A stretch of 64,000 nt of DNA from Escherichia coli (GTDB taxonomy: Bacteria > Pseudomonadota > Gammaproteobacteria > Enterobacterales > Enterobacteriaceae), in assembly GCF_001677475.2 (NCBI RefSeq), contig NZ_CP015229.1; one strand, written 5' to 3'. How positions within the stretch are numbered: the first letter of the stretch is position 1; each line of letters starts with the position of its first letter. The translations under genes and the position numbers were made by a program. The notes beneath the pieces were generated by a model, which worked only from the letters and a program-made list of their open reading frames with translations, was not told where the DNA came from and did not search any database. Below, in pieces: positions 3,006 through 50,369 of this stretch.

Positions 3006-3024
3006 TAGATAAATTTTAGGCAAC

Positions 3025-3103
3025 AAAAAACCCACCAACCTTGAACCGAAATGGCGGGGTTGATGGGCTCCACAAAATGGGGACATCAAAGAAAAGCAGT
3101 GGC
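3025..3103 (-). ncRNA. rybB: sigmaE-dependent small RNA RybB
   Basis: Reverse complement reads GCCACTGCTTTTCTTTGATGTCCCCATTTTGTGGAGCCCATCAACCCCGCCATTTCGGTTCAAGGTTGGTGGGTTTTTT, ending in a GC hairpin plus U-run; lies in the ybjK-ybjL intergenic where rybB is known to sit. Confidence 0.85.
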
Positions 3104-10036: not shown

Positions 10037-11170
10037 GTGAATGACGCTATCCCTCGCCCGCAGGCGAAAACCCGTAAGGCGCTGACGCCGCTATTAGAAA
10101 TCCGCAACCTCACCAAATCCTACGATGGTCAACATGCGGTGGATGATGTCAGCCTGACCATCTACAAAGGTGAAATCTTCGCGCTGCTGGGCGCATCCGG
10201 CTGTGGCAAGTCCACGCTGCTGCGTATGCTGGCAGGTTTCGAACAACCTTCTGTCGGGCAGATTATGCTCGATGGCGTCGATTTGTCACAGGTACCGCCT
10301 TACCTGCGCCCCATCAATATGATGTTTCAGTCTTACGCGCTGTTTCCGCATATGACCGTGGAACAGAATATCGCTTTTGGCCTGAAACAGGACAAATTGC
10401 CGAAAGCGGAAATTGCCAGCCGGGTCAATGAGATGCTCGGGCTGGTGCATATGCAGGAGTTCGCCAAACGCAAACCGCATCAGCTTTCCGGCGGTCAGCG
10501 ACAGCGTGTGGCACTGGCCCGAAGCCTTGCCAAGCGCCCGAAACTATTACTGCTCGATGAGCCGATGGGCGCACTGGATAAAAAGCTGCGTGACCGGATG
10601 CAGCTTGAAGTGGTGGATATTCTGGAGCGTGTCGGTGTGACCTGCGTGATGGTCACCCACGATCAGGAAGAGGCGATGACCATGGCGGGGCGCATCGCCA
10701 TTATGAATCGTGGGAAATTTGTCCAGATTGGCGAACCGGAAGAGATCTATGAGCATCCGACCACCCGCTACAGCGCCGAATTTATTGGCTCGGTTAATGT
10801 CTTTGAAGGTGTACTCAAAGAGCGTCAGGAAGATGGTCTGGTGCTTTATTCGCCGGGGCTGGTGCATCCACTGAAAGTCGATGTAGATGCTTCGGTGGTC
10901 GATAACGTGCCGGTGCATGTGGCGCTTCGCCCGGAAAAAATCATGCTTTGCGATCAACCGCCTGCTGACGGCTACAATTTTGCGATGGGGGAGGTGATAC
11001 ACATTGCCTATCTCGGCGATCTTTCGGTGTATCACGTTCGTCTGAAAAGTGGGCAGATGATTAGCGCCCAGCTACAAAACGCCCATCGTCATCGTAAAGG
11101 GTTACCGACCTGGGGCGATGAAGTGCGTTTGTGCTGGGAAGTGGACAGCTGTGTGGTGCTGACGGTTTAA
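10037..11170 (+). CDS. potG: Putrescine ABC transporter ATPase
   Basis: GTG start (MNDAIPRPQAKTRK...), Walker A GASGCGKST, signature LSGGQRQR, 377 aa. Confidence 0.9.
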   Translation: MNDAIPRPQAKTRKALTPLLEIRNLTKSYDGQHAVDDVSLTIYKGEIFALLGASGCGKSTLLRMLAGFEQPSVGQIMLDGVDLSQVPPYLRPINMMFQSYALFPHMTVEQNIAFGLKQDKLPKAEIASRVNEMLGLVHMQEFAKRKPHQLSGGQRQRVALARSLAKRPKLLLLDEPMGALDKKLRDRMQLEVVDILERVGVTCVMVTHDQEEAMTMAGRIAIMNRGKFVQIGEPEEIYEHPTTRYSAEFIGSVNVFEGVLKERQEDGLVLYSPGLVHPLKVDVDASVVDNVPVHVALRPEKIMLCDQPPADGYNFAMGEVIHIAYLGDLSVYHVRLKSGQMISAQLQNAHRHRKGLPTWGDEVRLCWEVDSCVVLTV

Positions 11171-11179
11171 GGAGCAAAG

Positions 11180-31327: not shown

Positions 31328-32227
31328 TTACGCAGAGAAAAGGGCGATCAGAATCGGCACTAACAGGCTAAGAATAAAACCGTGAACAATCGCCGCTGGA
31401 ACCATCTCCAGCCCGCCTGTACGTTGAAGAACGGGCAGGGTGAAATCCATCGACGTCGCACCGCATAAGCCCAGTGCGGTAGAGCGGCTGCGGCGAATCA
31501 GCCCAGGAATCAACATAATAGCAATCAGCTCACGGGCAAGATCATTAAAAAACGCCGCGCTCCCGATTACCGGGCCAAAAGATTCAGTCAACAAAATACC
31601 GGAAAGAGAATACCAGCCGAAACCGGAGGCCATTGCCAGCGCGGTATTGATGGGGAGATCAAGAATAAAGGCGTTAATTAAGCCACCAATTAAAGAACTG
31701 GCAACCACCACCACAGCGACAATCATTCCCCGGCGATTAAGGACAATCTGCTTTAAGGTCATGCCATTATTGCGTAGCTGAATACCGACGAGGAAAAGTA
31801 ACAGAATTAAGGTGTATTCGCTGGCTTCAGTGGCGTGTTGTAAGAAACCTAATCCGCTAAGGCCAATGGCAAAACCAATTACGACTACGCCGCACAGTTT
31901 TAGCGACTCCAGCGCCATCGCAATACGCGATGGGAGTTTTTCTTGCTGATGGTGATTGCGCCATGGCAGGCCTCGCTCCAGCCACATAAGGGCGGCAATA
32001 TTACACAGTAAAATAACGGTAATACTGACGGCAGAATAATGCAGAATCGCCAACAGGTTACTGGCGAGGTTATCGAGAAACGCCAGACTGATACCCATAA
32101 AAAAGAGAATAAGGTAAACCATCCAGCTTAATAGCTGATTAATAACTCTTAATGCAGCTTTTTGGCGAAGAGGAATGAGGTAACCCACAATCAGGGGAAC
32201 CAGAATGATTAACAGCCCAGAAAACAT
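31328..32227 (-). CDS. lysO: Lysine exporter LysO (YbjE)
   Basis: ORF trimmed to MFSGLLIILVPLIVGYLIPLRQ, 299 aa, polytopic membrane protein. Confidence 0.85.
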   Translation of the reverse strand: MFSGLLIILVPLIVGYLIPLRQKAALRVINQLLSWMVYLILFFMGISLAFLDNLASNLLAILHYSAVSITVILLCNIAALMWLERGLPWRNHHQQEKLPSRIAMALESLKLCGVVVIGFAIGLSGLGFLQHATEASEYTLILLLFLVGIQLRNNGMTLKQIVLNRRGMIVAVVVVASSLIGGLINAFILDLPINTALAMASGFGWYSLSGILLTESFGPVIGSAAFFNDLARELIAIMLIPGLIRRSRSTALGLCGATSMDFTLPVLQRTGGLEMVPAAIVHGFILSLLVPILIALFSA

Positions 32228-32402
32228 GAAAACCCAGTCCTTGCAAAGATGAAGTCGAAATGCGCGATGACACACTACTGAAAGCGGAAGGACGAGTAAA
32301 GTTGCAATTAAAAGGAAATGTTATGCATAAGGAGCAGTAGAGTATTCGTTTTCATTTAAAGATATTCTTGCGCTTTAATTACAAACCGCACCGGTGTTGG
32401 TG

Positions 32403-32533
32403 GCGTCAAAATCGCCGACCCGGTAGCCGTAAGGGATAAGCCGAGGGCACCGCGCAGCGGCGATTTTGTTCGCCAGAGCCCGGGGGGGCAGGGGCGGCGG
32501 CGATTGGCCGCCCCCTGCGCGCTCCCTGCGCCA
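32403..32533. repeat. GC-rich structured intergenic element with nested inverted repeats (unclassified)
   Basis: CAAAATCGCCG...CGGCGATTTTG (11-bp arms) and GCAGGGGCGGC...GCCGCCCCCTGC read directly; motif CGGCGATT recurs three times. Confidence 0.5.
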
Positions 32534-32590
32534 GTGACTATATGTGGCTTAACACATCAAGGAGCGCAACAGGAAGATGAATCAATATAT

Positions 32591-32621
32591 TTAAAAAAGG
32601 CCTGACATTGCGCCAGGCCTT
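32591..32621 (-). terminator. Intrinsic terminator of aqpZ
   Basis: Hairpin AAGGCCTGacattgcgCCAGGCCTT, followed on the minus strand by TTTTTTAA. Confidence 0.7.
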
Positions 32622-32630
32622 CTGCGTTAA

Positions 32631-33326
32631 TTAATTACGCTTTTCCAGCAGGGTCCGGTAAATCAGACCACCGATAATGCCGCCGACAATTGGCACCACC
32701 CAGAAGAACCACAGTTGTTCTAATGCCCAGCCGCCCTGGAAGATAGCAACCGCGGTGCTGCGCGCTGGGTTAACAGAAGTGTTAGTCACCGGAATACTGA
32801 TTAAGTGAATCAGGGTTAAGGCCAGACCAATAGCGATCGGCGCAAAACCTGCTGGAGCGAATTTGTCGGTTGCGCCGTGGATCACCAACAGGAAACCTGC
32901 ACTCAATACCAGTTCAACTACCAGCGCGGAAAGCATGGAATAACCGCCTGGTGAATGCTCGCCATAACCGTTAGAAGCAAAACCGCTGGCTGCCGCGTCA
33001 AAACCCGTTTTACCACTGGCAATTAAATACAGCAGCGCCGCTGCAACAATACCGCCGACAACCTGGGCAATTACGTAGCCAACGACTTCTTTTGCCGGGA
33101 AACGTCCGCCAGCCCATAAACCAATAGTGACCGCCGGGTTAAAATGACCACCAGAAATATGACCAACAGCGAAGGCCATCGTCAGAACGGTCAAACCAAA
33201 TGCCAGCGCCACGCCGGCAAAACCAATGCCTAATTCCGGGAAGCCTGCGGCCAGTACAGCACTACCACAGCCACCAAAAACAAGCCAGAAAGTACCAAAA
33301 CATTCAGCTGCTAATTTTCTGAACAT
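32631..33326 (-). CDS. aqpZ: Aquaporin Z
   Basis: [24 protein letters not shown]; two NPA motifs ([14 protein letters not shown]); 231 aa. Confidence 0.93.
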
Positions 33327-33751
33327 ATCCACCTCAATTAAAAATTGACCCTGTGAAAAATATGGTCGTTTTATAGGGTCGTCGTAAAAAAGTGACGACG
33401 GAAATAATGCGCGGCTATTTTAAAAACGAAGGCGAGTCATTCACCAGATAAATAAATCCAGTAAATTTGATTTAGGGCAACAGCGGGTTGTCCCATATAG
33501 TCATTTGTCTGATTGACAGTGTAGTGCAAGCGAAAGATTTAATCCTTTAGGCGTAATAAAAAATAATTTATCATGCTAATTATTTGATTTTGTTGTTTTT
33601 GCAGGCTTATCAGCAAGAGGGAGTATAACGCGATTATTCGCTCATTTTTCAGACATTTGCCATGCTTAAATGTGATGTCATCACGTATTAGCAAGGCCTT
33701 TCCCGTTATACTGCCAGCGTAAAGGATAAGTCACATATTTCTGGAGGGGAT

Positions 33752-35410
33752 ATGATTCTTGAGCGCGTTGAAATTGTGGGTTTTCGCGGTATCAACCGTT
33801 TGTCGTTGATGCTCGAACAAAACAACGTCCTGATTGGGGAGAACGCGTGGGGTAAATCCAGCTTGCTGGACGCCTTAACCCTGCTGCTATCGCCAGAATC
33901 AGATCTCTACCATTTTGAGCGCGACGATTTCTGGTTCCCGCCGGGAGATATCAACGGGCGAGAACATCATCTGCATATTATTTTGACCTTCCGCGAATCG
34001 CTGCCAGGCCGACATCGGGTTCGCCGCTATCGGCCGCTGGAAGCGTGCTGGACGCCATGCACCGATGGCTATCACCGTATTTTTTATCGTCTGGAAGGGG
34101 AGAGTGCGGAAGACGGCAGCGTGATGACACTGCGCAGTTTTCTCGATAAAGACGGACATCCGATTGATGTCGAGGATATTAACGATCAGGCACGCCATCT
34201 GGTGCGTTTAATGCCGGTGCTGCGCTTGCGTGATGCCCGTTTTATGCGTCGTATTCGTAACGGCACGGTGCCAAATGTCCCCAATGTGGAAGTCACCGCG
34301 CGCCAGCTCGATTTCCTCGCTCGTGAATTATCCTCACATCCGCAAAATCTCTCTGATGGACAGATTCGTCAGGGACTTTCCGCAATGGTACAGCTGCTTG
34401 AGCATTATTTCTCTGAGCAGGGGGCCGGACAGGCGCGATATCGTTTAATGCGGCGGCGGGCCAGCAATGAGCAACGAAGCTGGCGCTATCTGGATATCAT
34501 CAACCGGATGATTGACCGACCTGGAGGGCGCTCGTATCGGGTTATTTTGCTCGGCCTGTTTGCTACTTTATTGCAGGCAAAAGGCACATTGCGACTGGAT
34601 AAAGACGCCCGTCCATTGTTGCTGATTGAAGATCCAGAAACCCGTTTACACCCCATTATGCTTTCAGTTGCCTGGCATCTGTTGAATCTTCTGCCATTGC
34701 AGCGCATTGCCACCACCAACTCGGGTGAGTTGCTTTCGTTAACGCCGGTAGAGCATGTTTGCCGACTGGTACGTGAGTCCTCGCGCGTTGCCGCCTGGCG
34801 TCTGGGGCCGAGCGGCTTGAGTACCGAAGACAGCCGACGCATCTCTTTCCACATTCGTTTTAACCGTCCGTCATCGCTGTTTGCCCGTTGTTGGCTGCTG
34901 GTGGAAGGCGAAACGGAAACCTGGGTTATCAATGAACTGGCGCGTCAGTGCGGACATCATTTTGATGCCGAAGGGATCAAGGTCATTGAGTTTGCCCAGT
35001 CCGGGCTAAAGCCACTGGTTAAATTTGCCCGGCGAATGGGGATTGAATGGCATGTACTGGTCGATGGCGATGAAGCAGGGAAGAAATATGCTGCTACGGT
35101 ACGCAGCCTGTTGAATAACGATCGGGAAGCCGAACGAGAACATTTAACGGCGTTACCGGCGCTGGATATGGAACATTTTATGTATCGCCAGGGATTTTCC
35201 GATGTGTTCCACCGCGTGGCGCAAATCCCGGAAAATGTACCGATGAATCTGCGCAAAATTATCTCGAAAGCGATCCATCGCTCTTCCAAACCCGATCTTG
35301 CCATTGAAGTGGCAATGGAGGCCGGACGTCGTGGTGTGGACTCCGTACCGACGCTGCTGAAAAAAATGTTCTCACGCGTACTGTGGTTGGCGCGCGGTCG
35401 CGCGGATTAA
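33752..35410 (+). CDS. ybjD: OLD-family ATPase/TOPRIM nuclease homolog YbjD
   Basis: 552-aa ORF; Walker A GENAWGKSS near the N-terminus; recalled as OLD-family with a C-terminal Toprim region. Confidence 0.85.
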   Translation: MILERVEIVGFRGINRLSLMLEQNNVLIGENAWGKSSLLDALTLLLSPESDLYHFERDDFWFPPGDINGREHHLHIILTFRESLPGRHRVRRYRPLEACWTPCTDGYHRIFYRLEGESAEDGSVMTLRSFLDKDGHPIDVEDINDQARHLVRLMPVLRLRDARFMRRIRNGTVPNVPNVEVTARQLDFLARELSSHPQNLSDGQIRQGLSAMVQLLEHYFSEQGAGQARYRLMRRRASNEQRSWRYLDIINRMIDRPGGRSYRVILLGLFATLLQAKGTLRLDKDARPLLLIEDPETRLHPIMLSVAWHLLNLLPLQRIATTNSGELLSLTPVEHVCRLVRESSRVAAWRLGPSGLSTEDSRRISFHIRFNRPSSLFARCWLLVEGETETWVINELARQCGHHFDAEGIKVIEFAQSGLKPLVKFARRMGIEWHVLVDGDEAGKKYAATVRSLLNNDREAEREHLTALPALDMEHFMYRQGFSDVFHRVAQIPENVPMNLRKIISKAIHRSSKPDLAIEVAMEAGRRGVDSVPTLLKKMFSRVLWLARGRAD

Positions 35411-36399
35411 CCGCGAAACATCGTGGCCATTTGTGGCTGAATAGCGTCGAGCATCTCATAGCGCCGACGGTATTCAGCCCGTTTTTTACTGGCGATTTCG
35501 GCAATCTCTTTTCGTGCTATCTGTGCTGGAAGGCGGTAATGGCGTTCAGCATCACATACGCCGCCAACCGATTCCCAGAAAGCGTTGTAATCAGCGTGGA
35601 TCTTGCCTTCTTTATCGCGATAACGCAGGCTGCGGTAAATATGCGTTTCATTGCTGACGGCAATAATCTGCTCTACCTGCAAACGTTGGGCAAACAGACA
35701 GGCCGCTTCCATCACGAGGCGTTTGGGAAATAGCCCGTGGCAGGCTTTCGTCGCATTCTGGATTTCCTGATGTGGAATTTCCCATTTTGCGCCTTGCAGT
35801 CCGCCAATAAACATCGTTCTTTTCCCCTGATATTCACACAGGGTAAACGTGAGCTCTGCCAGAGGAATACCTTCGCTGTTGCGGAACAGGATTGTGCTGT
35901 CACCTTCTTTATCCATTGAGATCATCATGGTCAGCTCAAGCGTGAACTGCTCGCCGTTTTTGCCTTCCAGTTTAGCCAGTTGCAGCCCGGGGGTATTCAA
36001 ATATAAGCTGAATTCTTCCGCCGACATACACCCGCGGAGTAACGCATAATGGTAACGTAACGCCTCCAGCAATTGCTTACGGCTAAGATTCGCCGCAAGG
36101 TAAGGGCGATGCAGACGCACAGGCAGTCGCGGCTGGCGCGTTAACAACACATTGAGATTGGGCCAGTGGGAAAGTTCGTTCATCCACTCAACGCTTAAAC
36201 GCGGCATAATCAACGAGCGCAGCAAAAATTTCTGGCGAAAACTACGGCGATGCCAGAATTTACCCGGCCGACACTGTCCACGTGCCAGACTAAGAAAAAG
36301 TGAGAGGCTGCTGAGAGATTCAGATGACGTAAAGGTCCGTTCGGTTAGCTGCGACATATTCATGAAATCAATGGTTGTATATGACGTCGATTTCACCAT
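35407..36399 (-). CDS. ybjX: VirK/DUF535 family protein YbjX
   Basis: 330-aa ORF; 3' end overlaps the ybjD 3' end by 4 bp; exact start (36399 or 36357) uncertain. Confidence 0.8.
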   Translation of the reverse strand: MVKSTSYTTIDFMNMSQLTERTFTSSESLSSLSLFLSLARGQCRPGKFWHRRSFRQKFLLRSLIMPRLSVEWMNELSHWPNLNVLLTRQPRLPVRLHRPYLAANLSRKQLLEALRYHYALLRGCMSAEEFSLYLNTPGLQLAKLEGKNGEQFTLELTMMISMDKEGDSTILFRNSEGIPLAELTFTLCEYQGKRTMFIGGLQGAKWEIPHQEIQNATKACHGLFPKRLVMEAACLFAQRLQVEQIIAVSNETHIYRSLRYRDKEGKIHADYNAFWESVGGVCDAERHYRLPAQIARKEIAEIASKKRAEYRRRYEMLDAIQPQMATMFRG

Positions 36400-36513
36400 T
36401 GCGTATCTTAACCAAACATCAATAGTGTGATTACTAACGTAAATTTTAGGGTTTTGTTGATATTTCGTTGAAGTTAATGACCCGGATTGGCATATGGAGT
36501 ATTCAGAATATTT

Positions 36514-37629
36514 ATGAAAAAGCGGAAAACCGTGAAGAAGCGTTACGTTATTGCGCTGGTGATAGTCATCGCCGGGCTGATTACGTTATGGAGAATTCTT
36601 AACGCACCCGTGCCGACTTATCAGACGCTGATTGTGCGCCCCGGTGATTTACAGCAAAGCGTGCTGGCGACCGGAAAGCTGGACGCGCTGCGTAAGGTTG
36701 ATGTGGGCGCGCAGGTCAGCGGTCAGTTGAAAACGCTGTCGGTGGCGATTGGCGATAAAGTAAAAAAAGACCAGCTTTTAGGGGTTATTGATCCTGAACA
36801 GGCTGAAAACCAGATCAAGGAGGTCGAAGCAACGCTGATGGAGCTACGCGCGCAGCGGCAGCAGGCGGAAGCGGAGCTGAAACTGGCGCGGGTGACGTAT
36901 TCCCGTCAGCAACGTCTGGCACAAACGCAGGCGGTTTCACAGCAGGATCTCGACACCGCCGCGACGGAGATGGCTGTGAAACAGGCGCAAATTGGCACCA
37001 TTGACGCGCAAATCAAGCGCAATCAGGCTTCTCTCGATACGGCTAAAACCAATCTCGATTACACTCGCATCGTTGCCCCGATGGCCGGGGAAGTCACGCA
37101 AATCACCACTCTGCAAGGCCAGACGGTGATTGCCGCACAACAAGCACCGAACATTCTGACGCTGGCAGATATGAGCACCATGCTGGTAAAAGCGCAGGTT
37201 TCTGAAGCGGATGTAATCCACCTGAAGCCGGGGCAAAAAGCCTGGTTTACGGTACTAGGCGATCCGCTGACGCGCTACGAGGGGCAAATCAAGGATGTGC
37301 TACCGACGCCGGAAAAGGTTAACGACGCTATTTTCTATTACGCCCGTTTTGAAGTACCCAACCCCAATGGTTTGCTGCGGCTGGATATGACTGCGCAAGT
37401 GCATATTCAGCTCACCGATGTGAAAAATGTGCTGACGATCCCTCTGTCGGCGTTAGGCGATCCGGTTGGCGATAATCGTTATAAAGTCAAATTGTTGCGT
37501 AATGGTGAAACACGCGAGCGTGAAGTGACGATTGGCGCACGTAACGATACCGATGTTGAGATTGTCAAAGGGCTGGAAGCGGGCGATGAAGTGGTGATTG
37601 GTGAGGCCAAACCAGGAGCTGCACAATGA
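36514..37629 (+). CDS. macA: Macrolide efflux periplasmic adaptor MacA
   Basis: ORF trimmed to [23 protein letters not shown], 371 aa; coiled-coil adaptor. Confidence 0.9.
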
Positions 37630-39572
37630 CGCCTTTGCTCGAATTAAAGGATATTCGTCGCAGCTATCCTGCCGGTGATGAGCAGGTTGAGGTGCTGAAG
37701 GGCATCACCCTCGATATTTATGCGGGTGAGATGGTAGCGATTGTTGGCGCTTCGGGTTCCGGTAAATCGACCCTGATGAATATTCTCGGCTGTCTGGATA
37801 AGGCCACCAGCGGCACCTATCGCGTCGCCGGTCAGGATGTTGCCACGCTGGACGCCGATGCGCTGGCGCAACTGCGCCGCGAGCATTTCGGCTTTATTTT
37901 CCAGCGTTACCATTTGCTTTCGCATTTAACCGCCGAGCAGAACGTTGAAGTACCCGCCGTCTATGCCGGTCTTGAGCGGAAACAGCGGCTGCTTCGCGCC
38001 CAGGAGTTACTGCAACGACTGGGGCTGGAAGACCGTACAGAGTATTATCCGGCACAGCTTTCGGGCGGTCAGCAACAGCGCGTCAGCATCGCGCGGGCAT
38101 TGATGAACGGCGGTCAGGTAATTCTTGCCGATGAACCGACCGGCGCACTGGACAGCCATTCTGGCGAAGAGGTGATGGCGATCCTGCATCAGCTGCGCGA
38201 TCGCGGGCATACGGTGATTATCGTCACCCACGATCCGCAGGTCGCTGCTCAGGCTGAGCGGGTGATCGAAATTCGCGACGGCGAAATTGTGCGCAATCCT
38301 TCCGCCATTGAAAAAGTGAATGTTGCTGGCGGGACGGAACCTGTTGTCAACACGGCGTCTGGCTGGCGGCAGTTTGTCAGCGGTTTTAACGAGGCGCTGA
38401 CGATGGCATGGCGGGCGCTGGCAGCGAATAAAATGCGTACTTTACTGACCATGCTGGGTATTATTATCGGTATTGCGTCGGTGGTTTCCATTGTCGTGGT
38501 GGGTGACGCCGCCAAACAAATGGTGCTGGCGGATATTCGTTCTATTGGTACGAATACTATTGATGTCTATCCCGGGAAAGATTTTGGCGATGACGATCCG
38601 CAATATCAGCAGGCGCTGAAGTACGATGACTTAATCGCCATCCAAAAACAACCGTGGGTCGCCTCAGCCACACCTGCCGTCTCGCAAAACCTGCGCCTTC
38701 GTTATAACAATGTTGATGTTGCTGCCAGTGCCAATGGCGTGAGCGGCGATTATTTTAATGTCTATGGCATGACCTTCAGTGAAGGGAACACCTTTAATCA
38801 GGAGCAGCTGAACGGTCGTGCGCAGGTCATGGTTCTCGACAGTAATACTCGCCGCCAGCTTTTCCCCCATAAAGCAGATGTGGTTGGCGAGGTGATTCTG
38901 GTCGGCAATATGCCCGCCAGAGTCATTGGTGTGGCGGAAGAAAAACAGTCGATGTTTGGTAGCAGTAAAGTGCTGCGTGTCTGGCTACCTTACAGCACAA
39001 TGTCCGGGCGAGTTATGGGCCAGTCGTGGCTTAACTCCATTACTGTCAGGGTGAAAGAAGGATTTGACAGCGCCGAGGCGGAACAGCAACTCACGCGTTT
39101 ACTTTCACTGCGCCACGGAAAGAAGGATTTCTTTACCTGGAACATGGACGGCGTCTTGAAAACTGTTGAAAAGACCACACGTACTTTACAACTGTTTCTG
39201 ACGCTGGTGGCGGTGATTTCGCTGGTGGTGGGCGGTATTGGTGTAATGAATATTATGCTGGTGTCAGTGACCGAGCGGACGCGGGAAATTGGCATTCGCA
39301 TGGCTGTAGGTGCGCGAGCAAGCGATGTTTTGCAACAGTTCCTGATCGAAGCCGTACTGGTTTGCCTGGTCGGTGGCGCGTTGGGAATAACACTGTCACT
39401 GTTAATTGCTTTCACCTTGCAGCTTTTCTTACCCGGCTGGGAGATTGGTTTTTCACCGTTGGCGCTGCTGCTGGCGTTTCTCTGCTCGACGGTCACCGGG
39501 ATTTTATTTGGCTGGTTACCCGCACGAAATGCGGCACGACTGGATCCAGTAGATGCTCTGGCACGAGAGTAA
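37626..39572 (+). CDS. macB: Macrolide export ATP-binding/permease MacB
   Basis: 648-aa ORF; Walker [19 protein letters not shown]-terminal FtsX-like permease; 4-bp overlap with macA. Confidence 0.92.
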
Positions 39573-39583
39573 TTTTTGAGATA

Positions 39584-39612
39584 AAAATGCCAGCCGATCG
39601 GGCTGGCATTTT
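39584..39612. terminator. Bidirectional terminator between macB and cspD
   Basis: AAAATGCCAGCCgatcgGGCTGGCATTTT perfect hairpin flanked by A/T runs. Confidence 0.75.
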
Positions 39613-39644
39613 GCCTTTAGGATGTACACAATGAGACAGAAGAG

Positions 39645-39869
39645 CTATGCGACTGCCGCTTCTACTTCGACGGGCACAATAACACTGGCGTGATTGCCTT
39701 TTGGCCCCTGGTGGACATCAAACTGAACGGATTGTCCAGCTTTTAGCGTTCTGTAACCATCCATCTGAATGGTGGAATAATGAGCGAAAATATCTTCGCC
39801 GCCGCCTTCAGGGCAGATGAAACCAAACCCTTTGGCATTGTTGAACCACTTAACAGTACCCTTTTCCAT
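39645..39869 (-). CDS. cspD: Cold-shock-like protein CspD
   Basis: ORF trimmed to MEKGTVKWFNNAKGFGFICPEGGGEDIFAHYS (RNP1 motif), 74 aa. Confidence 0.92.
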   Translation of the reverse strand: MEKGTVKWFNNAKGFGFICPEGGGEDIFAHYSTIQMDGYRTLKAGQSVQFDVHQGPKGNHASVIVPVEVEAAVA

Positions 39870-40192
39870 GCTTCGACATCCTTCGCAAATCTTATACAAA
39901 TAAGATGGAATAAACCGGGGTCAGAGAGGGGGGCTGTTCAAAACCTCGCCAACTCTAGAAATACAATTTAGAGAATTAGGGCGAGCCGTCAAGCATTTGA
40001 CAGGGGGCAAGGGGCAGGTATGAATCAAAAATTTGAAGCAGTTAACGCTATTGACAGGAATGTGACAGATGTCGCTGATGCCAACGATAGATGATAGTTA
40101 TCTATCATGTGGAGTAGATTGGTCAGGCAAATAAGCTCTTGTCAGCGGCAGGGCGTTCTGCCGATAACCGTAACCGAAGATGATAACTGACA

Positions 40193-40513
40193 ATGGGTAA
40201 AACGAACGACTGGCTGGACTTTGATCAACTGGCGGAAGAAAAAGTTCGCGACGCGCTAAAACCGCCATCTATGTATAAAGTGATATTAGTCAATGATGAT
40301 TACACTCCGATGGAGTTTGTTATTGACGTGTTACAAAAATTCTTTTCTTATGATGTAGAACGTGCAACGCAATTGATGCTCGCTGTTCACTACCAGGGGA
40401 AGGCCATTTGCGGAGTCTTTACCGCCGAGGTTGCAGAAACCAAAGTGGCGATGGTGAACAAGTACGCGAGGGAGAATGAGCATCCATTGCTGTGTACGCT
40501 AGAAAAAGCCTGA
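40193..40513 (+). CDS. clpS: ClpA adaptor ClpS
   Basis: 106-aa [46 protein letters not shown]. Confidence 0.93.
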
Positions 40514-40543
40514 ATGCAGGCATAAAAATTGGGGGAGGTGCCT

Positions 40544-42820
40544 ATGCTCAATCAAGAACTGGAACTCAGTTTAAATATGGCTTTCGCCAGAGCGCGCGAG
40601 CACCGTCATGAGTTTATGACCGTCGAGCACTTGTTACTGGCGCTGCTCAGTAACCCATCTGCCCGGGAGGCGCTGGAAGCGTGTTCTGTGGATTTGGTTG
40701 CGCTCCGTCAGGAACTGGAAGCCTTTATTGAACAAACCACACCCGTTCTGCCTGCCAGTGAAGAGGAGCGCGACACACAGCCGACGCTGAGTTTTCAGCG
40801 TGTACTGCAACGTGCGGTCTTCCATGTCCAGTCCTCCGGTCGCAATGAAGTTACCGGTGCAAACGTTCTGGTCGCTATCTTTAGCGAACAGGAGTCGCAG
40901 GCGGCGTATCTGTTGCGCAAACATGAAGTCAGCCGTCTCGATGTGGTGAACTTTATTTCTCATGGCACGCGTAAAGACGAGCCATCTCAGTCTTCTGAAC
41001 CAGGAAACCAGCCGAGCAGTGAAGAACAAGCTGGTGGGGAGGACCGTATGGAGAATTTCACGACTAACCTGAACCAGCTTGCACGCGTGGGAGGAATCGA
41101 CCCGCTGATTGGTCGTGAGAAGGAACTGGAGCGCGCCATTCAGGTTCTCTGTCGCCGCCGTAAAAACAACCCGCTGCTGGTCGGGGAGTCTGGCGTCGGT
41201 AAAACCGCCATTGCGGAAGGTCTTGCCTGGCGTATTGTTCAGGGCGATGTGCCGGAAGTGATGGCTGACTGTACGATTTATTCTCTCGATATCGGTTCTC
41301 TGTTAGCGGGCACAAAATATCGCGGCGACTTTGAAAAACGTTTTAAAGCGTTGCTCAAGCAGCTGGAGCAGGACACTAACAGCATCCTGTTTATTGATGA
41401 GATCCACACCATTATCGGTGCGGGTGCAGCGTCTGGTGGTCAGGTCGATGCGGCTAACTTAATCAAACCGTTGCTCTCCAGCGGTAAAATTCGCGTAATT
41501 GGTTCGACAACCTATCAGGAGTTCAGCAACATTTTCGAGAAAGACCGTGCTCTGGCGCGTCGCTTCCAGAAAATTGATATTACTGAACCGTCAATCGAAG
41601 AAACTGTTCAAATCATCAATGGCCTGAAACCGAAGTATGAAGCGCACCACGACGTGCGTTATACCGCAAAAGCGGTGCGTGCGGCGGTAGAGCTGGCGGT
41701 GAAATACATCAATGATCGTCATCTGCCGGATAAAGCGATTGATGTTATCGACGAAGCGGGCGCTCGCGCACGCCTGATGCCGGTAAGCAAACGCAAGAAA
41801 ACCGTTAATGTGGCGGATATTGAGTCCGTGGTGGCCCGTATTGCACGCATTCCAGAGAAGAGTGTTTCTCAGAGTGACCGCGATACTCTGAAAAACCTCG
41901 GCGATCGCCTGAAAATGCTGGTCTTCGGTCAGGATAAAGCCATTGAGGCGCTGACTGAAGCCATTAAGATGGCGCGTGCAGGTTTAGGTCACGAACATAA
42001 ACCGGTCGGTTCGTTCCTGTTTGCCGGCCCTACCGGGGTCGGGAAAACAGAGGTGACAGTACAGCTTTCCAAAGCCCTGGGCATTGAGCTTTTACGCTTT
42101 GATATGTCCGAGTATATGGAGCGTCATACCGTCAGCCGCCTGATTGGTGCACCTCCGGGATACGTTGGTTTTGATCAGGGTGGTCTGCTGACCGATGCGG
42201 TGATCAAACATCCGCACGCGGTGCTGCTGCTGGACGAAATCGAGAAAGCGCATCCGGACGTATTCAACATTCTGTTGCAGGTGATGGACAACGGCACGCT
42301 GACCGATAACAACGGACGCAAGGCAGATTTCCGTAACGTGGTGCTGGTGATGACCACCAACGCCGGGGTACGTGAAACCGAGCGCAAATCTATTGGCCTT
42401 ATCCACCAGGATAACAGCACCGATGCGATGGAAGAGATCAAGAAGATCTTTACGCCAGAGTTCCGTAACCGTCTCGACAACATTATCTGGTTCGATCATT
42501 TGTCAACCGACGTAATCCATCAGGTGGTGGATAAATTCATCGTCGAGTTGCAGGTTCAGTTGGATCAAAAAGGCGTTTCTCTGGAAGTGAGTCAGGAAGC
42601 ACGTAACTGGCTGGCCGAGAAAGGTTACGACCGGGCAATGGGTGCACGTCCGATGGCTCGCGTCATTCAGGACAACCTGAAAAAACCGCTCGCTAACGAA
42701 CTGCTGTTTGGCTCGCTGGTGGACGGCGGCCAGGTCACCGTTGCACTGGATAAAGAGAAAAATGAGCTGACCTACGGGTTCCAGAGTGCGCAAAAGCACA
42801 AGGCGGAAGCAGCGCATTAA
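40544..42820 (+). CDS. clpA: ATP-dependent Clp protease ATPase subunit ClpA
   Basis: ORF trimmed to [24 protein letters not shown]; two AAA+ modules ([18 protein letters not shown]); 758 aa. Confidence 0.93.
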
Positions 42821-42843
42821 TCTGATTGTCAGGTAGGTTGGTC

Positions 42844-42884
42844 AAGTCCGTAATCTCGAAAGAGGTTGCGGACTTTTTATTTAT
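42844..42884 (+). terminator. Putative intrinsic terminator after clpA
   Basis: AAGTCCG...CGGACTT stem with a large loop, followed by TTTTTATTT. Confidence 0.45.
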
Positions 42885-43034
42885 GGGGTGGAACGGTGAA
42901 AACCCTATTTTTGGAGGTGAAGGTAAGTTGTTGATAATTAGTGCTGCTGGAAAAGGTAAGGATAAAAAAGGGTGACAGCAGGAAAATGAGATGGTTTTGC
43001 TTTATTAACAACGGGCTAAACGTGTAGTATTTGA

Positions 43035-43122
43035 GTTCACTGCCGTACAGGCAGCTTAGAAATTCACAGGTAACATACTCCACCCGCCCACCATGTTCAC
43101 TGCCGTACAGACAGATAAAATG
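43035..43122 (+). CRISPR. Orphan type I-F (Ypest-type) CRISPR mini-array: 2 repeats, 1 spacer, no cas genes
   Basis: Repeat 1 GTTCACTGCCGTACAGGCAGCTTAGAAA (43035-43062), 32-bp spacer TTCACAGGTAACATACTCCACCCGCCCACCAT, degenerate repeat 2 GTTCACTGCCGTACAGACAGATAAAATG (43095-43122); AT-rich leader-like region upstream. Confidence 0.8.
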
Positions 43123-43165
43123 CGAAAAAAAAGCTCGCACTTTCGTACGAGCTCTTCTTTAAATA

Positions 43166-43253
43166 TGGCGGTGAGGGGGGGATTCGAACCCCCGATACGT
43201 TGCCGTATACACACTTTCCAGGCGTGCTCCTTCAGCCACTCGGACACCTCACC
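43166..43253 (-). tRNA. serW: tRNA-Ser (anticodon GGA)
   Basis: Reverse complement GGTGAGGTGTCCGAGTGGCTGAAGGAGCACGCCTGGAAAGTGTGTATACGGCAACGTATCGGGGGTTCGAATCCCCCCCTCACCGCCA: long variable arm, GGA anticodon, 3' CCA. Confidence 0.92.
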
Positions 43254-43442
43254 AAATTGTTTTGTCGCCTGACCTCATGGGGGCAACGGGGCGCTACTAT
43301 AGGGAGTTGGAGTAAAACGGTCAAGAAGAATTTTAATGATAATTATTGTTTGCTCATACTGTAAACAAGTTGTGCAGTATATCTACATCGAGACAAGTTA
43401 TGGATTTATACTTCCAAAGTACTTCATACATATCACAAAATA

Positions 43443-43468
43443 AAAAGGTCGGCTAAACCGACCTTTTA
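43443..43468 (-). terminator. Intrinsic terminator of infA
   Basis: AAAAGGTCGGctaaaCCGACCTTTT hairpin with flanking A/T runs. Confidence 0.65.
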
Positions 43469-43505
43469 CTCGTTCTTTCTCTTCGCCCATCAGGCGGTAA
43501 AACAA

Positions 43506-43727
<222 letters not shown>

Positions 43728-44008
43728 ATCCTCTGGGGTATCACTACCGTAATTTGAACCGGCAAGATAATGCCGAAGTTCTGTAAATAAGTAAAGATTT
43801 GCGCGCTAAATCGCAACAAACAGGTTCGGCACATTACTCCGAAAACACACGGCTAAGCCGCACCAAAAGCGCAACGTATAAGGGAGCGGTGAGATAAACG
43901 ATGGGCGTTACCTGACGCGAAAAATTCCTTATCGGCAGCGGGGTAATGAGCGTAACCAACTCTGCGACCGCAATTATAACACTCTGGGGAGAAATGTGCC
44001 GAAAACAT

Positions 44009-44713
44009 TCATTCTTGTGGTGAAAACAAGCACCGTGGTACCCAGAAATTATTCGGCAATCGTCCGAGGCGCATTTGATTGAGATAATTGAGATAATCCC
44101 GGCGAGGAATTTCGCAGGCACCAAGCGACGCTGTGTGATCGTTAAGTACCTGGCAGTCGATAAGTTTACCGCCATGACCAATAAATTCCTCACAGAATAC
44201 CAGAAGCGCCGTTTTAGACGCATTTTCCATCCGGCTGAACATGGACTCGCCACAAAATAGCGTTCCCTGGGCCACGCCGTACATACCGCCGACAAGCTCA
44301 TCTTCACGCCAGACTTCAATAGAGTGGGCATGACCGAGTTCGTGAAGGCGATGGTAGGCTTCGACCACGCCACGCGTGATCCAGGTTCCTTCTTCGCGAT
44401 CGCTGGCACAGCCTTCAATGACCTGACCAAAAGCGTAATTCATCGTGACTCGATAGGGCGAGCGTTTATGAAATCGCTTCATACTACGGCTGATATGCAG
44501 TGATTCTGGCCATAGCACCGCGCGAGGATCGGGCGACCACCAGAGGATGGGGTCGCCTGGAGAAAACCACGGAAAAATACCACGCTGGTAAGCCATTAAC
44601 AGGCGCGCAGGGCTAAGATCGCCCCCCAGTGCCAGCAGGCCGTTAGGCTCACGTAATGCGCCTTCCGGGGAAGGGAAGGCTATTGAATGGCGAGAAAGCT
44701 GAACCAGGCGCAT
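44009..44713 (-). CDS. aat: Leucyl/phenylalanyl-tRNA-protein transferase
   Basis: 234-aa [38 protein letters not shown]. Confidence 0.9.
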
Positions 44714-44754
44714 GACCGCAAAACTCCACGCTAGTCGGATCGTTCAATAATAGC

Positions 44755-46476
44755 TTACAAACCCTGCTTAAACTGGTAATAACGCCCCTGTCTGGCAAGC
44801 AGTTCTGCGTGAGTACCTTGCTCAATAATTTGCCCGTTGTCCATCACTATTATTTTCTGGAAACGAGAGAGTCCGCGAAGTCGATGGGTGACCATTAACA
44901 CCGTTTTCTCATGCATCATTTCTGCAAGCAATTCAAGGATCTGACTTTCGGTTGTGGCATCTAAGCCTTCTGTAGGTTCATCCAGCAATACCAGCGGCGC
45001 ATCATGTAACAGCGCACGGGCGATAGCCAGACGGCGCAGTTCACCACCGGAGAGCTGGCGTCCGCCTTCACCTAACCAACTGTTGAGACCTGCATCCTCG
45101 AGCAGCTTCTCCAGACCAACGCGACGTAAGATCTCCGCCAGAGCCTCATCACTACTGCCAGGTGAGGCGAGTAACAGATTATCACGCAGCGTGGCGCTAA
45201 ACAGATGCACTCGCTGTGGCACAACGCTGATGGTCTGTCGTAGAGTCGCTTCATTCAGACTGGCTATGGGGCTATCGTTAAGCAAAATCTCGCCCTGTTG
45301 CGGGTCCCATGCGCGGGTCAGCAGTTGTAACAGTGTTGATTTGCCGCATCCGGTTCGCCCGAGAATCGCTATATGTTCCCCGGCGTTTACCTGAAGAGAA
45401 ATCCCTTTAAGTGCCTGTTGGGATTGCTCCGGATAAGTGAACTGAACATCCCGTAATGTCAGCGAAACGCGATCGGCAACACGAGTTTGGGTATCAGGGA
45501 AGGTGACCTCCGGTTTTTGATCCGTTAAATCAGTGATCCGAACGGCAGAGGCAATGACTTGCCCCAGATGCTGAAATGCACCCGTTACTGGTGCCAGTGC
45601 TTCAAACGCGGCTAACGCGCAGAAGACAAACAGGGCAATTAACGCGCCGGGTTGAGCATTGCCGCCAACGCCGCCAGACGCCATCCACAGCATCAGGATC
45701 ACCGCTAACGCGCCAATGAGCAGCATTATCGCTTGCGACAATGCGGTTAGTTCAGATTGACGGCGTTGCGCTTCCAGCCATTGAATTTCTGTATTCTCTA
45801 GTTGCGTGCGATAACGATCGCTGGCACCAAAAATGGTCAGCTCAGCTTGCCCTTGCAGCCAGGCCGTCAGTTGTTGGCGATACTGCCCGCGAAGATGAGT
45901 CAGATTTTGCCCGGTGCTTTTTCCCGCACGATAAAACAGCGGTGGCATCAGGAAAAGCGTCAGTAACATAATGCCGCCCAGCGTAAAGGCGAGGGTGAAA
46001 TCAAGGAAACTTAACCCGACTGTCACCACCATAATCACCACAAAAGCGCCCACCAGCGGCGAAATAACGCGCAGGTAAAGATGATCGAGCGTATCAACAT
46101 CCGCCACCACGCGGTTGAGCAATTCGCCCTGACGATAGCGCGCCAGTCCGGCAGGGGAGAGGGGTAGCAATTTGCTGAAGGTGTAAATGCGCAGATGCTG
46201 CAACACGCGGAAAGTCGCGTCGTGACTTACCAGACGTTCAAAATAACGCCCGGCAGTACGGGTGATTGCTGCGCCACGCACGCCCGCAGCGGGTAGCATG
46301 TAGTTGAAGCTGTACAGTCCGGCAACCCCCGCAATCGCTGAGGCGGAGAGGAACCAGCCCGAAAGTGTCAACAGACCGATACTGGCGAGCAGCGTGACAA
46401 TTGCCAGCACGATACCAAGACTTAACATCCATTTATGACGTTTATACAGTGCCAGATAGGGTAGCAAAGCGCGCAT
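44755..46476 (-). CDS. cydC: ABC exporter subunit CydC (glutathione/cysteine export, cytochrome bd assembly)
   Basis: 573-aa ORF; N-terminal TMD plus C-terminal NBD (GRTGCGKST, LSGGELRR). Confidence 0.9.
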   Translation of the reverse strand: MRALLPYLALYKRHKWMLSLGIVLAIVTLLASIGLLTLSGWFLSASAIAGVAGLYSFNYMLPAAGVRGAAITRTAGRYFERLVSHDATFRVLQHLRIYTFSKLLPLSPAGLARYRQGELLNRVVADVDTLDHLYLRVISPLVGAFVVIMVVTVGLSFLDFTLAFTLGGIMLLTLFLMPPLFYRAGKSTGQNLTHLRGQYRQQLTAWLQGQAELTIFGASDRYRTQLENTEIQWLEAQRRQSELTALSQAIMLLIGALAVILMLWMASGGVGGNAQPGALIALFVFCALAAFEALAPVTGAFQHLGQVIASAVRITDLTDQKPEVTFPDTQTRVADRVSLTLRDVQFTYPEQSQQALKGISLQVNAGEHIAILGRTGCGKSTLLQLLTRAWDPQQGEILLNDSPIASLNEATLRQTISVVPQRVHLFSATLRDNLLLASPGSSDEALAEILRRVGLEKLLEDAGLNSWLGEGGRQLSGGELRRLAIARALLHDAPLVLLDEPTEGLDATTESQILELLAEMMHEKTVLMVTHRLRGLSRFQKIIVMDNGQIIEQGTHAELLARQGRYYQFKQGL

Positions 46477-48243
46477 TTAAATCTCCTCCTGACGATGGGC
46501 CAGTAATGTGGCGAATGGGCCACCAGCCACACTTAATTCCGCGTAACGTCCTTGCTCAATAATCCGGCCATCCTGCATAACCCAAATGACATCCCAGTCA
46601 GCAAGATCTTCTAACTGGTGGGTGACCATTAACGTTGTCTGGCGCAGAGAGGCGGCATTCAGCGCCTCCATTACGCGCTGTTCACTGTGAGCATCAAGGC
46701 TGGCAGCGGGTTCATCCAACAGTAATAGCGAGCAGGGATTCAGTAACGCACGGGCCACCGCCACGCGCTGCGCCTGCCCCACGGAAAGGCGGGCAGCCTG
46801 GTCGCCAACAGGCGTATCAACGCCTTGTGGCAGGAGCGGTAGAAACTCACTGACCCAGGCGTTATCCAGCGCTGTTTGTAACTCGTGTTCGCTGGCATCA
46901 GGTCGTGCCAGTAGTACGTTATCCCGTAGTGTTGCTGCCGGTAATTGTGGGTTTTGCCCAACCCAGGAGAGATGTTTACGCCATGATTCCGGTGATAAAT
47001 CGCGTAATTCTATCCCGTTGATTCGTAGCGATCCCTGATATGAGAGAAAACCAGAAAGCGCGTTCAACAGTGAACTTTTACCTGAACCGCTGCGACCAAC
47101 CAACACCGCACGTTGGCCAGCTGGCAAAGTAAAGTTCAGCGGTCCGGCCAGCGTTTTACCTTCTGGTGATGTAATAAACAGCTCCTCGGCTTCAATGGTC
47201 ACCGGATCGGTCGATGCTAATTCCGCCTCACCACGCTGCGGATGGGCAAGCGGGGTTTCCATAAACGTTTTCAAACTGTCAGCTGCACCAACAGCCTGGG
47301 CTTTAGCATGATAAAACGTACCGAGATCGCGTAATGGCTGGAAAAACTCCGGCGCAAGGATCAGGGCCAGAAAACCCGCAGCCAGCGTCACGCCAGTATC
47401 GTAGTGACCAAAATCCAGCTCGCCGAGATAGGAAAAACCAAAGTAGACCGCCACCAGAGCAATTGACAGCGAGGTAAAAAATTCGAGAATGCCGGAGGAT
47501 AAAAACGCCAGCCGCAGCACTTCCATTGTCCGTTGGCGGAAATCTTCCGAAGCAGAACGAATACTTTCAATTTCAGCTTCACCACGACCAAAAATACGCA
47601 ATGTTTCCATGCCGCGCAGGCGATCGAGAAAATGCCCACTTAAGCGAGCAAGAGCGAGAAAGTTGCGTCGGTTAGCATCGGCAGCCCCCATTCCAACCAG
47701 CGCCATAAATAACGGAATTAGCGGTGCAGTGCCCAGTAGAATCAGCGCTGCAGCCCAGTTAGAGGGGAAGATAGCCACCACAATCAGCAACGGCACCGAC
47801 ACTGCCAGCGCCATTTGCGGCAGGTAGCGTGCATAGTAATCATGCATATCGTCAATTTGCTCGAGTACCAGCGTCGCCCAGCTCCCCGCCGGTTTACCCT
47901 GAATCCACGCTGGCCCTGCTTGTTGCAGACGGTCGAGAACCTGACGGCGGATGGCAAAGCGGATATGCTGCCCGGCGTGATAACCCACCCGTTCGCGTAA
48001 CCAGACCACCCATGCGCGCAGTACAAAGGTCAGAACCAGTAACGTAAAGGGAAGCAGCAGAGCTTCACGGGGAATATTCTCCATAATCATATGTTGCAGA
48101 ATTCGCGCCATGAACCAGGCCTGGGCAATGATCAATATGCCGCTCACAAAGCCCAGCAGACGAGAAATATTCAGCCAACGTTGGGAGATGACGCTTTGCT
48201 GTTTTAACCAGCGGGTTAACTCTTTTTGACGGGATTTATTCAT
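46477..48243 (-). CDS. cydD: ABC exporter subunit CydD
   Basis: 588-aa ORF; NBD motifs GRSGSGKSS, LSVGQAQR; directly abuts cydC. Confidence 0.9.
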   Translation of the reverse strand: MNKSRQKELTRWLKQQSVISQRWLNISRLLGFVSGILIIAQAWFMARILQHMIMENIPREALLLPFTLLVLTFVLRAWVVWLRERVGYHAGQHIRFAIRRQVLDRLQQAGPAWIQGKPAGSWATLVLEQIDDMHDYYARYLPQMALAVSVPLLIVVAIFPSNWAAALILLGTAPLIPLFMALVGMGAADANRRNFLALARLSGHFLDRLRGMETLRIFGRGEAEIESIRSASEDFRQRTMEVLRLAFLSSGILEFFTSLSIALVAVYFGFSYLGELDFGHYDTGVTLAAGFLALILAPEFFQPLRDLGTFYHAKAQAVGAADSLKTFMETPLAHPQRGEAELASTDPVTIEAEELFITSPEGKTLAGPLNFTLPAGQRAVLVGRSGSGKSSLLNALSGFLSYQGSLRINGIELRDLSPESWRKHLSWVGQNPQLPAATLRDNVLLARPDASEHELQTALDNAWVSEFLPLLPQGVDTPVGDQAARLSVGQAQRVAVARALLNPCSLLLLDEPAASLDAHSEQRVMEALNAASLRQTTLMVTHQLEDLADWDVIWVMQDGRIIEQGRYAELSVAGGPFATLLAHRQEEI

Positions 48244-48299
48244 TGCACGCTTAGCAGGTGAGTTATCAGAATTATTTGCAGAGCAATGTTACAACGAGG

Positions 48300-48340
48300 A
48301 AAAAATAAAGGCGACCCATAGTCGCATGGTGTCGCCTTCT
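48300..48340 (-). terminator. Intrinsic terminator of trxB
   Basis: Minus strand reads AAGGCGACaccatgcgactatgGGTCGCCTT followed by TATTTTTT. Confidence 0.7.
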
Positions 48341-48365
48341 TTACTTTTGTTACTGATTTGTAAAA

Positions 48366-49448
<1,083 letters not shown>

Positions 49449-49874
49449 TCAAATTCTCCCGTCATTATCACCTCTGCTACTTAAATTTCCCGCTTTATAA
49501 GCCGATTAAATGATGAATAAACGCCCCTGGTAATGAATATCTGGCATGTTGTACTAAAAATCGATGTTTTGCTTTGACAATCCCCTGGTGTTTTGCGAAA
49601 ACATTCGAGGAAGAAAAAAACAGTATTCTTATATGCGCATAACCATGCATGTAAATACCATGTTTACCGTGCTAGTGAAATCTACGTATGGCGTGGACAG
49701 ACGCCATTCGTGATGTCGATAGCTGCCACAAGGCAACGGTCTTCTCACCGTAGACCCAGGCATTGCGCGCCGTGAATCTTCATGATTTCGGTCTATCGTG
49801 ACGGGTAGCGACTCTGAACAGTGATGTTTCAGGGTCAGACAGGAGTAGGGAAGGAATACAGAGAGACAATAATA

Positions 49875-50369
49875 ATGGTAGATAGCAAGAAGCGCCCTGG
49901 CAAAGATCTCGACCGTATCGATCGTAACATTCTTAATGAGTTGCAAAAGGATGGGCGTATTTCTAACGTCGAGCTTTCTAAACGTGTGGGACTTTCCCCA
50001 ACGCCGTGCCTTGAGCGTGTGCGTCGGCTGGAAAGACAAGGGTTTATTCAGGGCTATACGGCGCTGCTGAACCCCCATTATCTGGATGCATCACTTCTGG
50101 TATTCGTTGAGATTACTCTGAATCGTGGCGCACCGGATGTGTTTGAACAATTCAATACCGCTGTACAAAAACTTGAAGAAATTCAGGAGTGTCATTTAGT
50201 ATCCGGTGATTTCGACTACCTGTTGAAAACACGCGTGCCGGATATGTCAGCTTACCGTAAGTTGCTGGGGGAAACCCTGCTGCGTCTGCCTGGCGTCAAT
50301 GACACACGGACATACGTTGTTATGGAAGAAGTCAAGCAGAGTAATCGTCTGGTTATTAAGACGCGCTAA
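49875..50369 (+). CDS. lrp: Leucine-responsive regulatory protein
   Basis: ORF trimmed to MVDSKKRPGKDLDRIDRNILNELQKDGRISNVELSKRVGLSPTPCLERV, 164 aa. Confidence 0.95.
   Translation: MVDSKKRPGKDLDRIDRNILNELQKDGRISNVELSKRVGLSPTPCLERVRRLERQGFIQGYTALLNPHYLDASLLVFVEITLNRGAPDVFEQFNTAVQKLEEIQECHLVSGDFDYLLKTRVPDMSAYRKLLGETLLRLPGVNDTRTYVVMEEVKQSNRLVIKTR

Follow-up and report, generated by a model that had tools for sequence, protein, structure and literature searches.

A probable anti-cas1f orphan type I-F CRISPR mini-array between clpA and serW of Escherichia coli

We analysed a stretch of 64,000 nucleotides of an Escherichia coli chromosome, referred to here as the window. We found that the interval between clpA and serW holds an orphan type I-F CRISPR mini-array with an intact leader, and that its only spacer is very likely aimed at the cas1f gene of incoming I-F cas operons. 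The array is already known, having been described in 2010 and put to experimental test in 2016 (the latter according to a 2021 review), and the window adds no new element. Touchon and Rocha (2010) named it CRISPR3 and placed it between clpS and aat (PMC2886076), and in the naming of the Mojica group the single cassette is CRISPR4.1-2 (Almendros et al. 2014, PMC3903273). Modestly new are the large-sample counts, a change in the stem of the second repeat, and a synonymous seed mismatch that is found in every E. coli cas1f allele sampled but not in the alleles of sister clades.

Anatomy of the array and its locus

The gene order of the window is that of an ordinary E. coli chromosome (ybjI...potFGHI...clpS-clpA-serW-infA...ycaD). 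The features of the locus are the following.

42818-42820: clpA stop codon; the open reading frame ends at 42820, and clpA is annotated at homologous loci.
42844..42875, + strand: clpA intrinsic terminator, a terminator-like hairpin followed by a T-run, the upstream boundary of the locus.
42876..43034, + strand: leader of the array, with homology to that of the cas-linked I-F array (CRISPR4.1 / 'CRISPR3').
43035..43062, + strand: repeat 1 (R1), an exact I-F consensus repeat and the putative source of the 8-nt 5' handle of the crRNA, CUUAGAAA.
43063..43094, + strand: anti-cas1 spacer, antisense to cas1f codons ~33-43.
43095..43122, + strand: repeat 2 (R2), a degenerate terminal repeat that would give the 3' hairpin of the crRNA; its stem carries G17A.
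43125..43160, - strand: serW terminator, a terminator-like site where homology to I-F-positive strains resumes; the downstream junction of the cas-less configuration.
43166..43253, - strand: serW, tRNA-Ser(GGA), called by ARAGORN and scoring 53.8 bits against the Rfam tRNA family.
43506-43724, - strand: infA.

The first repeat, GTTCACTGCCGTACAGGCAGCTTAGAAA, has no mismatch to the 28-bp type I-F consensus, and as a control for chance, sequences matching the consensus with at most 3 mismatches were found in 0 of 100 dinucleotide-preserving shuffles. On the + strand it scores 50.1 bits against the Rfam family CRISPR-DR4 (RF01317), for which the gathering score is 35, and it contains the 5-bp I-F stem, CUGCC/GGCAG, together with the 3' handle CUUAGAAA. 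It is followed by a single spacer of 32 nt, TTCACAGGTAACATACTCCACCCGCCCACCAT, and then by the second repeat, GTTCACTGCCGTACAGACAGATAAAATG. The two repeats thus lie in the same orientation around one unique 32-nt spacer, which is the organisation of a two-repeat array. The initial annotation had described two 28-bp I-F repeats with a 32-bp spacer between them, and this description holds. No additional repeat-like copy was found in the window when as many as 8 substitutions were allowed.

R2 has 6 mismatches to the consensus and scores 20 bits on RF01317, under the gathering score. Five of the mismatches are within the last 8 bases, in agreement with the earlier statement that the repeat is degenerate at its 3' end; the sixth, which that statement did not mention, is G17A in the stem of the hairpin. 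This substitution converts the C9-G17 pair to a C-A mismatch, and the hairpin predicted for bases 1-20 of R2 has a free energy of -0.8 kcal/mol versus -8.0 for the consensus. The G17A allele is the K-12 type, and the GGCAG half of the stem is retained in the O55:H7/O157 and ST131 alleles. The terminal end of R2, ATAAAATG, is common to all orphan arrays that we read and is unlike both terminal repeats of strain UTI89.

The leader is about 160 bp long and lies between the clpA terminator and the array. It is AT-rich and homologous to the leaders of active arrays, and the ~45 bp that directly precede R1 do not differ between the window, K-12-like, O55:H7 and UTI89 sequences. A simple scan with the sigma-70 consensus returned 0 promoters on the + strand of the leader, a result that is uninformative on promoter absence. 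Although there are only two repeats, and mechanical minus-strand open reading frames overlap the region, there is next to no probability that the locus is a chance direct repeat or a piece of the clpA 3' region or of the serW terminator. The exact match to the 28-bp consensus, its lack of counterparts in the shuffles, the Rfam score above the gathering score, the spacing of exactly 32 nt, and a leader homologous to those of multi-spacer arrays beside cas genes all argue for a CRISPR array.

We found no I-F cas genes in the window by blastn with the UTI89 cas operon or by tblastn with its six proteins; apart from matches at chance level, the spacer was the only sequence that either search returned. 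For the I-F cas genes, this bears out the claim of the initial annotation that the window is free of cas genes. Within the window the array therefore has none of the adjacent cas1f, cas2/3f, csy1-3 and cas6f genes of a complete I-F system, and instead abuts the serW terminator. Its location between clpA and serW/infA and the lack of I-F cas genes in the window are those of an orphan array, and the locus is an orphan array and not a complete I-F system.

The same position had been proposed as the one where other strains carry a full I-F system, and UTI89 does carry cas1f-cas3f-csy1-3-cas6f here. In that strain clpA is followed by a leader, a 9-repeat array, cas1f, cas3f, csy1, csy2, csy3 and cas6f, then by the serW side, and past serW by a second leader and a 7-repeat array before infA. 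Window positions 42821-43063 align to the UTI89 leader and first repeat with 88% identity over 243 bp. Positions 43126-43333, which hold the serW terminator, serW and the region upstream of serW, align to positions 21311-21519 of the UTI89 locus, just past cas6f, and positions 43442-43520 align at its infA end. The window array lies where UTI89 has its cas-proximal array, and the window has neither the cas operon nor the second array.

The cas-linked CRISPR4.1 arrays of UTI89, LF82 and ED1a share with the window array the repeat, the leader and the place directly downstream of clpA. In contrast to the single anti-cas1 spacer of the window, the cas-linked arrays contain 8-13 spacers in E. coli and up to 41 in E. 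whittamii, 0 of which are directed against cas genes. Their terminal repeat ends TATTCACA, whereas that of the window array ends ATAAAATG, and they are followed by cas1f-cas3f-csy1-3-cas6f and by a second array between serW and infA, neither of which is present in the window. The anti-cas1 spacer itself was absent from the cas-linked arrays of the four I-F-positive E. coli strains that we read (UTI89, ETEC-2264, A22 and A13).

Set against the published orphan array CRISPR3/CRISPR4.1-2, the window array has the same locus, the same 28-bp repeat, the same terminal repeat ending and the same single cas1-matching spacer. The 88-bp array is identical to that of K-12-lineage strains and differs in nothing from the published one. 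The leader does differ: over the whole intergenic region the window is 98% like O55:H7 and 93.6% like K-12. With an O55:H7-like leader and a spacer and terminal repeat of the K-12 type, the clpA-serW intergenic region looks like a mosaic.

A separate observation concerns the UTI89 locus. Just past the cas3f stop, at ~17110-17137 on the - strand, in the cas3f-csy1 intergenic region, lies an inverted degenerate I-F repeat-like sequence, GTAAACTGCCGTACAGGCAGCTCGCGCC, in which the hairpin is intact. This might be a Cas6f-binding hairpin within the transcript region of the cas operon.

The initial annotation took the adjacent tRNA gene as a sign that the locus is an integration hotspot. This was not borne out by the UTI89 I-F locus, in which we found no repeat of serW or of its terminator of at least 12 nt. 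We also considered serW as the att site of a cas island and rejected it; the one island seen nearby, that of strain PS10-3, occupies the yljB-clpS interval and not the serW site. That island (PS10-3 positions 10356-19961), which the window lacks, is about 10 kb long and resembles a phage satellite, with genes for an integrase, an Icd-like protein, a primase, a capsid protein, a head decoration protein and a small terminase.

Elsewhere in the window, three small RNAs score above their Rfam gathering scores: RybB (3022-3100, - strand), naRNA4 (CssrE) (15620-15700, + strand) and STnc130 (57852-57986, - strand). All three are expected in this part of the chromosome. Compared with E. coli 65COLEC, there is also an insertion of ~2.5 kb between ybjP and ybjQ (19354-21901), with a GC content of 29-36% against ~55% in the flanks. 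It holds one open reading frame of 600 aa (19950-21752, + strand) whose C-terminal part is pentapeptide-repeat-like, and whose sole NCBIfam match, to the Hailong effector HalA, is weak (22 bits; cut-off 250). Among the 5,426 complete E. coli genomes, 1,128 have the segment, and its product is annotated in them as 'pentapeptide repeat-containing protein'.

The spacer and its match in cas1f

The spacer is the reverse complement (antisense strand) of cas1f codons ~33-43. Against cas1f of UTI89 it matches at 30 of 32 positions, and on the spacer-identical strand the protospacer is preceded at its 5' side by CC. The I-F PAM of E. coli has been described as a GG at the leader-proximal end of the opposite strand (PMC3506596), which corresponds to CC on the spacer-identical strand. 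A match of 30/32 with a CC PAM was likewise found in cas1f of A22, A13, PA45B, A33, APEC E19035 and AHB22, and one of 29/32 with a CC PAM in cas1f of ETEC-2264 and FDAARGOS_1254. These nine E. coli cas1f alleles read TTCGCTGGT..., and all of them mismatch the spacer at positions 4 and 6; the extra mismatch is at position 10 in ETEC-2264 and at position 11 in FDAARGOS_1254.

When 100,044 species-representative genomes were scanned with a degenerate pattern, the same codon stretch was found in four more cas1f genes. The closest belongs to Escherichia strain E69, whose full-length cas1f, reading TTCACTGGTAACATACTCCACCCGCCCACCAT, matches the window spacer at 31 of 32 positions and differs from it at position 6 only. 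The O55:H7/O157 variant of the spacer matches E69 cas1f at all 32 positions. The remaining three genes have 2 (E. whittamii), 4 (Escherichia sp. E1V33) and 5 (Pseudocitrobacter faecalis) mismatches. A CC PAM flanks the protospacer in all 12 Escherichia cas1f alleles that we read (the nine of E. coli and those of E69, E. whittamii and E1V33). The spacer has, therefore, both the match to a cognate cas gene and the I-F PAM that characterise anti-cas orphan arrays. Comparison of the spacer with I-F cas genes had been suggested as a check, and it returned cas1f with 29-31 of 32 positions matched and the correct PAM.

The two positions at which all nine E. coli alleles differ from the spacer are not alike. 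Position 4 (A in the spacer) corresponds to the wobble position of a serine codon, which is AGT in the spacer and in E69, E. whittamii, E1V33 and Pseudocitrobacter, and AGC in the nine E. coli alleles. Position 4 falls within the seed of the spacer. Position 6 is A in the window and in K-12 and T everywhere else, and the A would change Ser to Cys. Since the change would otherwise imply this replacement, the spacer was most simply mutated at position 6 after its capture. In type I effector complexes every sixth base of the spacer is flipped out and unpaired, so the change at position 6 should be neutral for targeting.

These matches are in keeping with what is known of the locus. CRISPR3 has been reported to carry spacers against Cas1, Cas3 and Csy2 of the I-F (Ypest) subtype and to occur where those cas genes are absent, and the array was proposed to act as an 'anti-CRISPR' against incoming cas systems (PMC2886076). 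The statement of the initial annotation that orphan arrays at this locus carry spacers matching I-F cas genes agrees with the literature (PMC2886076; Almendros 2016 as summarised in PMC8616872).

We found no phage or plasmid target for the spacer by blastn (E<=10) in collections of 72,556 plasmids and 50,697 phage records. The only plasmid match is a partial one of 25 nt in a Vitreoscilla plasmid, and it lies itself within a cas1f gene; the match to phage Lw1 covers 17 nt and is due to chance. This further check, also suggested beforehand, thus gave no target outside cas genes. Spacers of cas-linked I-F arrays in E. coli have been reported to match plasmids (PMC2886076), and we found no other support for the idea that this spacer is an ordinary immune memory of a phage or plasmid with an incidental similarity to cas1f. 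Given matches of 30-31 of 32 positions to cas1f with the correct PAM, and only the 25-nt cas1f-borne and 17-nt matches in the plasmid and phage records, we regard that idea as highly improbable.

Distribution among complete E. coli genomes

The occurrence of the locus was determined across a set of 5,426 complete RefSeq E. coli genomes. In 4,947 of them at least 80% of the 345-bp clpA-serW interval is covered, which represents the cas-less configuration. The 88-bp array is present with at least 99% identity in 1,422 genomes, about a quarter of the total, and is covered over at least 80% in 2,337, while cas1f is present in 241. The array is thus conserved across the population.

A search with the 32-nt spacer gave 2,570 places in 2,567 genomes. 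By best match, 1,432 genomes have an exact copy, 888 have one at 95-99% and 247 one at 90-95%; the last band would be the one with the 241 cas1f-positive genomes. Among the 60 matches listed (from 28 Gb of E. coli genomes), every match outside an array is within cas1f. Among the matches listed, those with 90-94% identity over all 32 bases are in annotated cas1f, and the others are in unannotated sequence or CRISPR features. Because 2,570 places are spread over 2,567 genomes, the spacer and its target occur together in at most 3 genomes, versus ~100 expected if they were independent, a comparison that is uncorrected for phylogeny. The array is nearly excluded from cas1f-positive genomes; this exclusion is confounded by phylogeny, since I-F cas genes are found mostly in a few lineages.

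Comparing the content of arrays at this locus across strains had also been recommended, and other orphan arrays were found to hold anti-cas3f and anti-cas1f spacers. In the orphan arrays of ST131, strain 190, FDAARGOS_497, HS and LD93-1, the best match of every spacer to the I-F operon is in cas3f or cas1f. These five arrays contain seven distinct spacers, of which six have a CC PAM and one, common to three arrays, has TC. The HS and LD93-1 arrays have the spacer of the window with a 4-nt deletion.

Several further observations were made in these comparisons. Over positions 30000-50000 the highest identity of any complete E. coli genome to the window is 97.9%, and over the accessory island it is 98.4%; the window thus represents a lineage about 2% away from all 5,426 genomes, for instance one resembling Shigella or a cryptic clade. 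The clpA-serW interval of 65COLEC, 300490 and PS10-3 exceeds that of the window by ~175 bp, and this extra sequence, which the window lacks, separates the orphan array from serW. In PS10-3 and GPEC606 the extra segment has an 'RtT sRNA' annotation, which suggests insertion of a repeat element adjoining the array in the strains with the longer interval. An identical 88-bp array was also found around positions 1151-1182 of contig JADFJT010000085.1, from the metagenome-assembled genome B43T3L14 ('Proteobacteria bacterium'). This contig is 94% identical to window positions 41911-43250 over 1.3 kb and the similarity ends at the 5' end of serW, which points to a rearrangement or a chimeric assembly; the window does not derive from it.

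Proposed mechanism and state of this allele

Most likely the array works as published and would act only when an I-F system arrives. Alone it would be inactive, as neither Cas6f nor the Csy proteins are present. Upon entry of DNA with a cognate I-F cas operon, the incoming Cas6f would cut the array transcript, and the Csy complex would load a crRNA made of the 8-nt handle of R1, the spacer and the R2 hairpin. The complex would then bind the CC-flanked protospacer within the incoming cas1f. Cas2/3 would degrade the incoming DNA, drive primed spacer uptake, or both, and the I-F system could not establish itself.

For such activity we draw on the literature. Native orphan arrays were expressed, interfered with cas-F plasmids and primed, according to accounts of Almendros et al. 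(2016, Nat Microbiol 1:16081) given in PMC8616872 and PMC13142298. The solitary or mini arrays of viruses and mobile elements likewise have a single spacer and a truncated second repeat and rely on Cas proteins in trans, but they sit on the element and use the Cas proteins of the resident host (PMC8616872). The window array, unlike these, lies on the chromosome, and the Cas proteins that it would turn against the invader's cas gene are the invader's own. We considered heterologous I-F experiments in E. coli (Vorontsova 2015, PMC4678832) as a natural test and set them aside; that study used the cas genes of P. aeruginosa, which the spacer would not be expected to target, so it has no bearing.

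We infer that the window allele still works and that it is probably weakened. The G17A change in R2, the drop in predicted hairpin stability and the Rfam score under the threshold together indicate that processing by Cas6f, and retention of the only crRNA, may be poor. In addition, position 4 lies in the seed and is mismatched in each of the nine E. coli cas1f alleles. Against present-day E. coli cas1f alleles, judged from the alignments, the array would therefore be more likely to act by priming than by direct interference. Against cas1f alleles of the E69 type the seed is, by the same alignments, predicted to be intact.

The absence of cas genes has also been explained in the opposite direction. 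In an alternative of Diez-Villasenor et al. (2010), as quoted in PMC2886076, the cas genes were lost on account of such spacers. It is conceivable, though quite unlikely, that the array is an inert fossil: spacers that an ancestor with an active I-F system acquired from its own cas genes would have led to autoimmunity and to deletion of the cas operon, and the array would persist by inertia, this allele being without a working crRNA. The stem of R2, with G17A and a hairpin of -0.8 kcal/mol, would suit such a fossil, as would the seed mismatch to all E. coli cas1f alleles sampled and the lack of a promoter match in the leader, the scan for which was uninformative. The base at position 6 of the spacer is unlike that of every cas1f allele seen, but it is unpaired in type I complexes and its change should be neutral. 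The same spacer has lost 4 nt in the HS and LD93-1 arrays; across divergent lineages, however, the spacers that survive at the locus are anti-cas only. Inertia also fits poorly with an 88-bp array that is identical in ~1,420 genomes and a leader that is conserved up to the repeat. The published experiments, as PMC8616872 presents them, found native orphan arrays to interfere and to prime. Finally, an origin in autoimmunity and a present anti-cas function are mutually compatible.

We therefore favour an array that is still directed at incoming I-F cas operons. It is possible, although we doubt it, that the spacer records an I-F lineage other than today's E. coli one and that the K-12-type allele, with G17A in R2, may be a dead copy. 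The AGC alleles of E. coli cas1f would fit variants that escape the orphan array and that its wide occurrence has selected. In another reading the spacer may be older than, or foreign to, the present I-F systems of E. coli.

The stem change in R2 and the seed mismatch matter for the question of whether the K-12-type array, which is common, still works. An array of this kind would be a CRISPR memory turned on CRISPR-Cas itself, and it would help to account for the rarity of I-F systems in E. coli (241 of 5,426 genomes).
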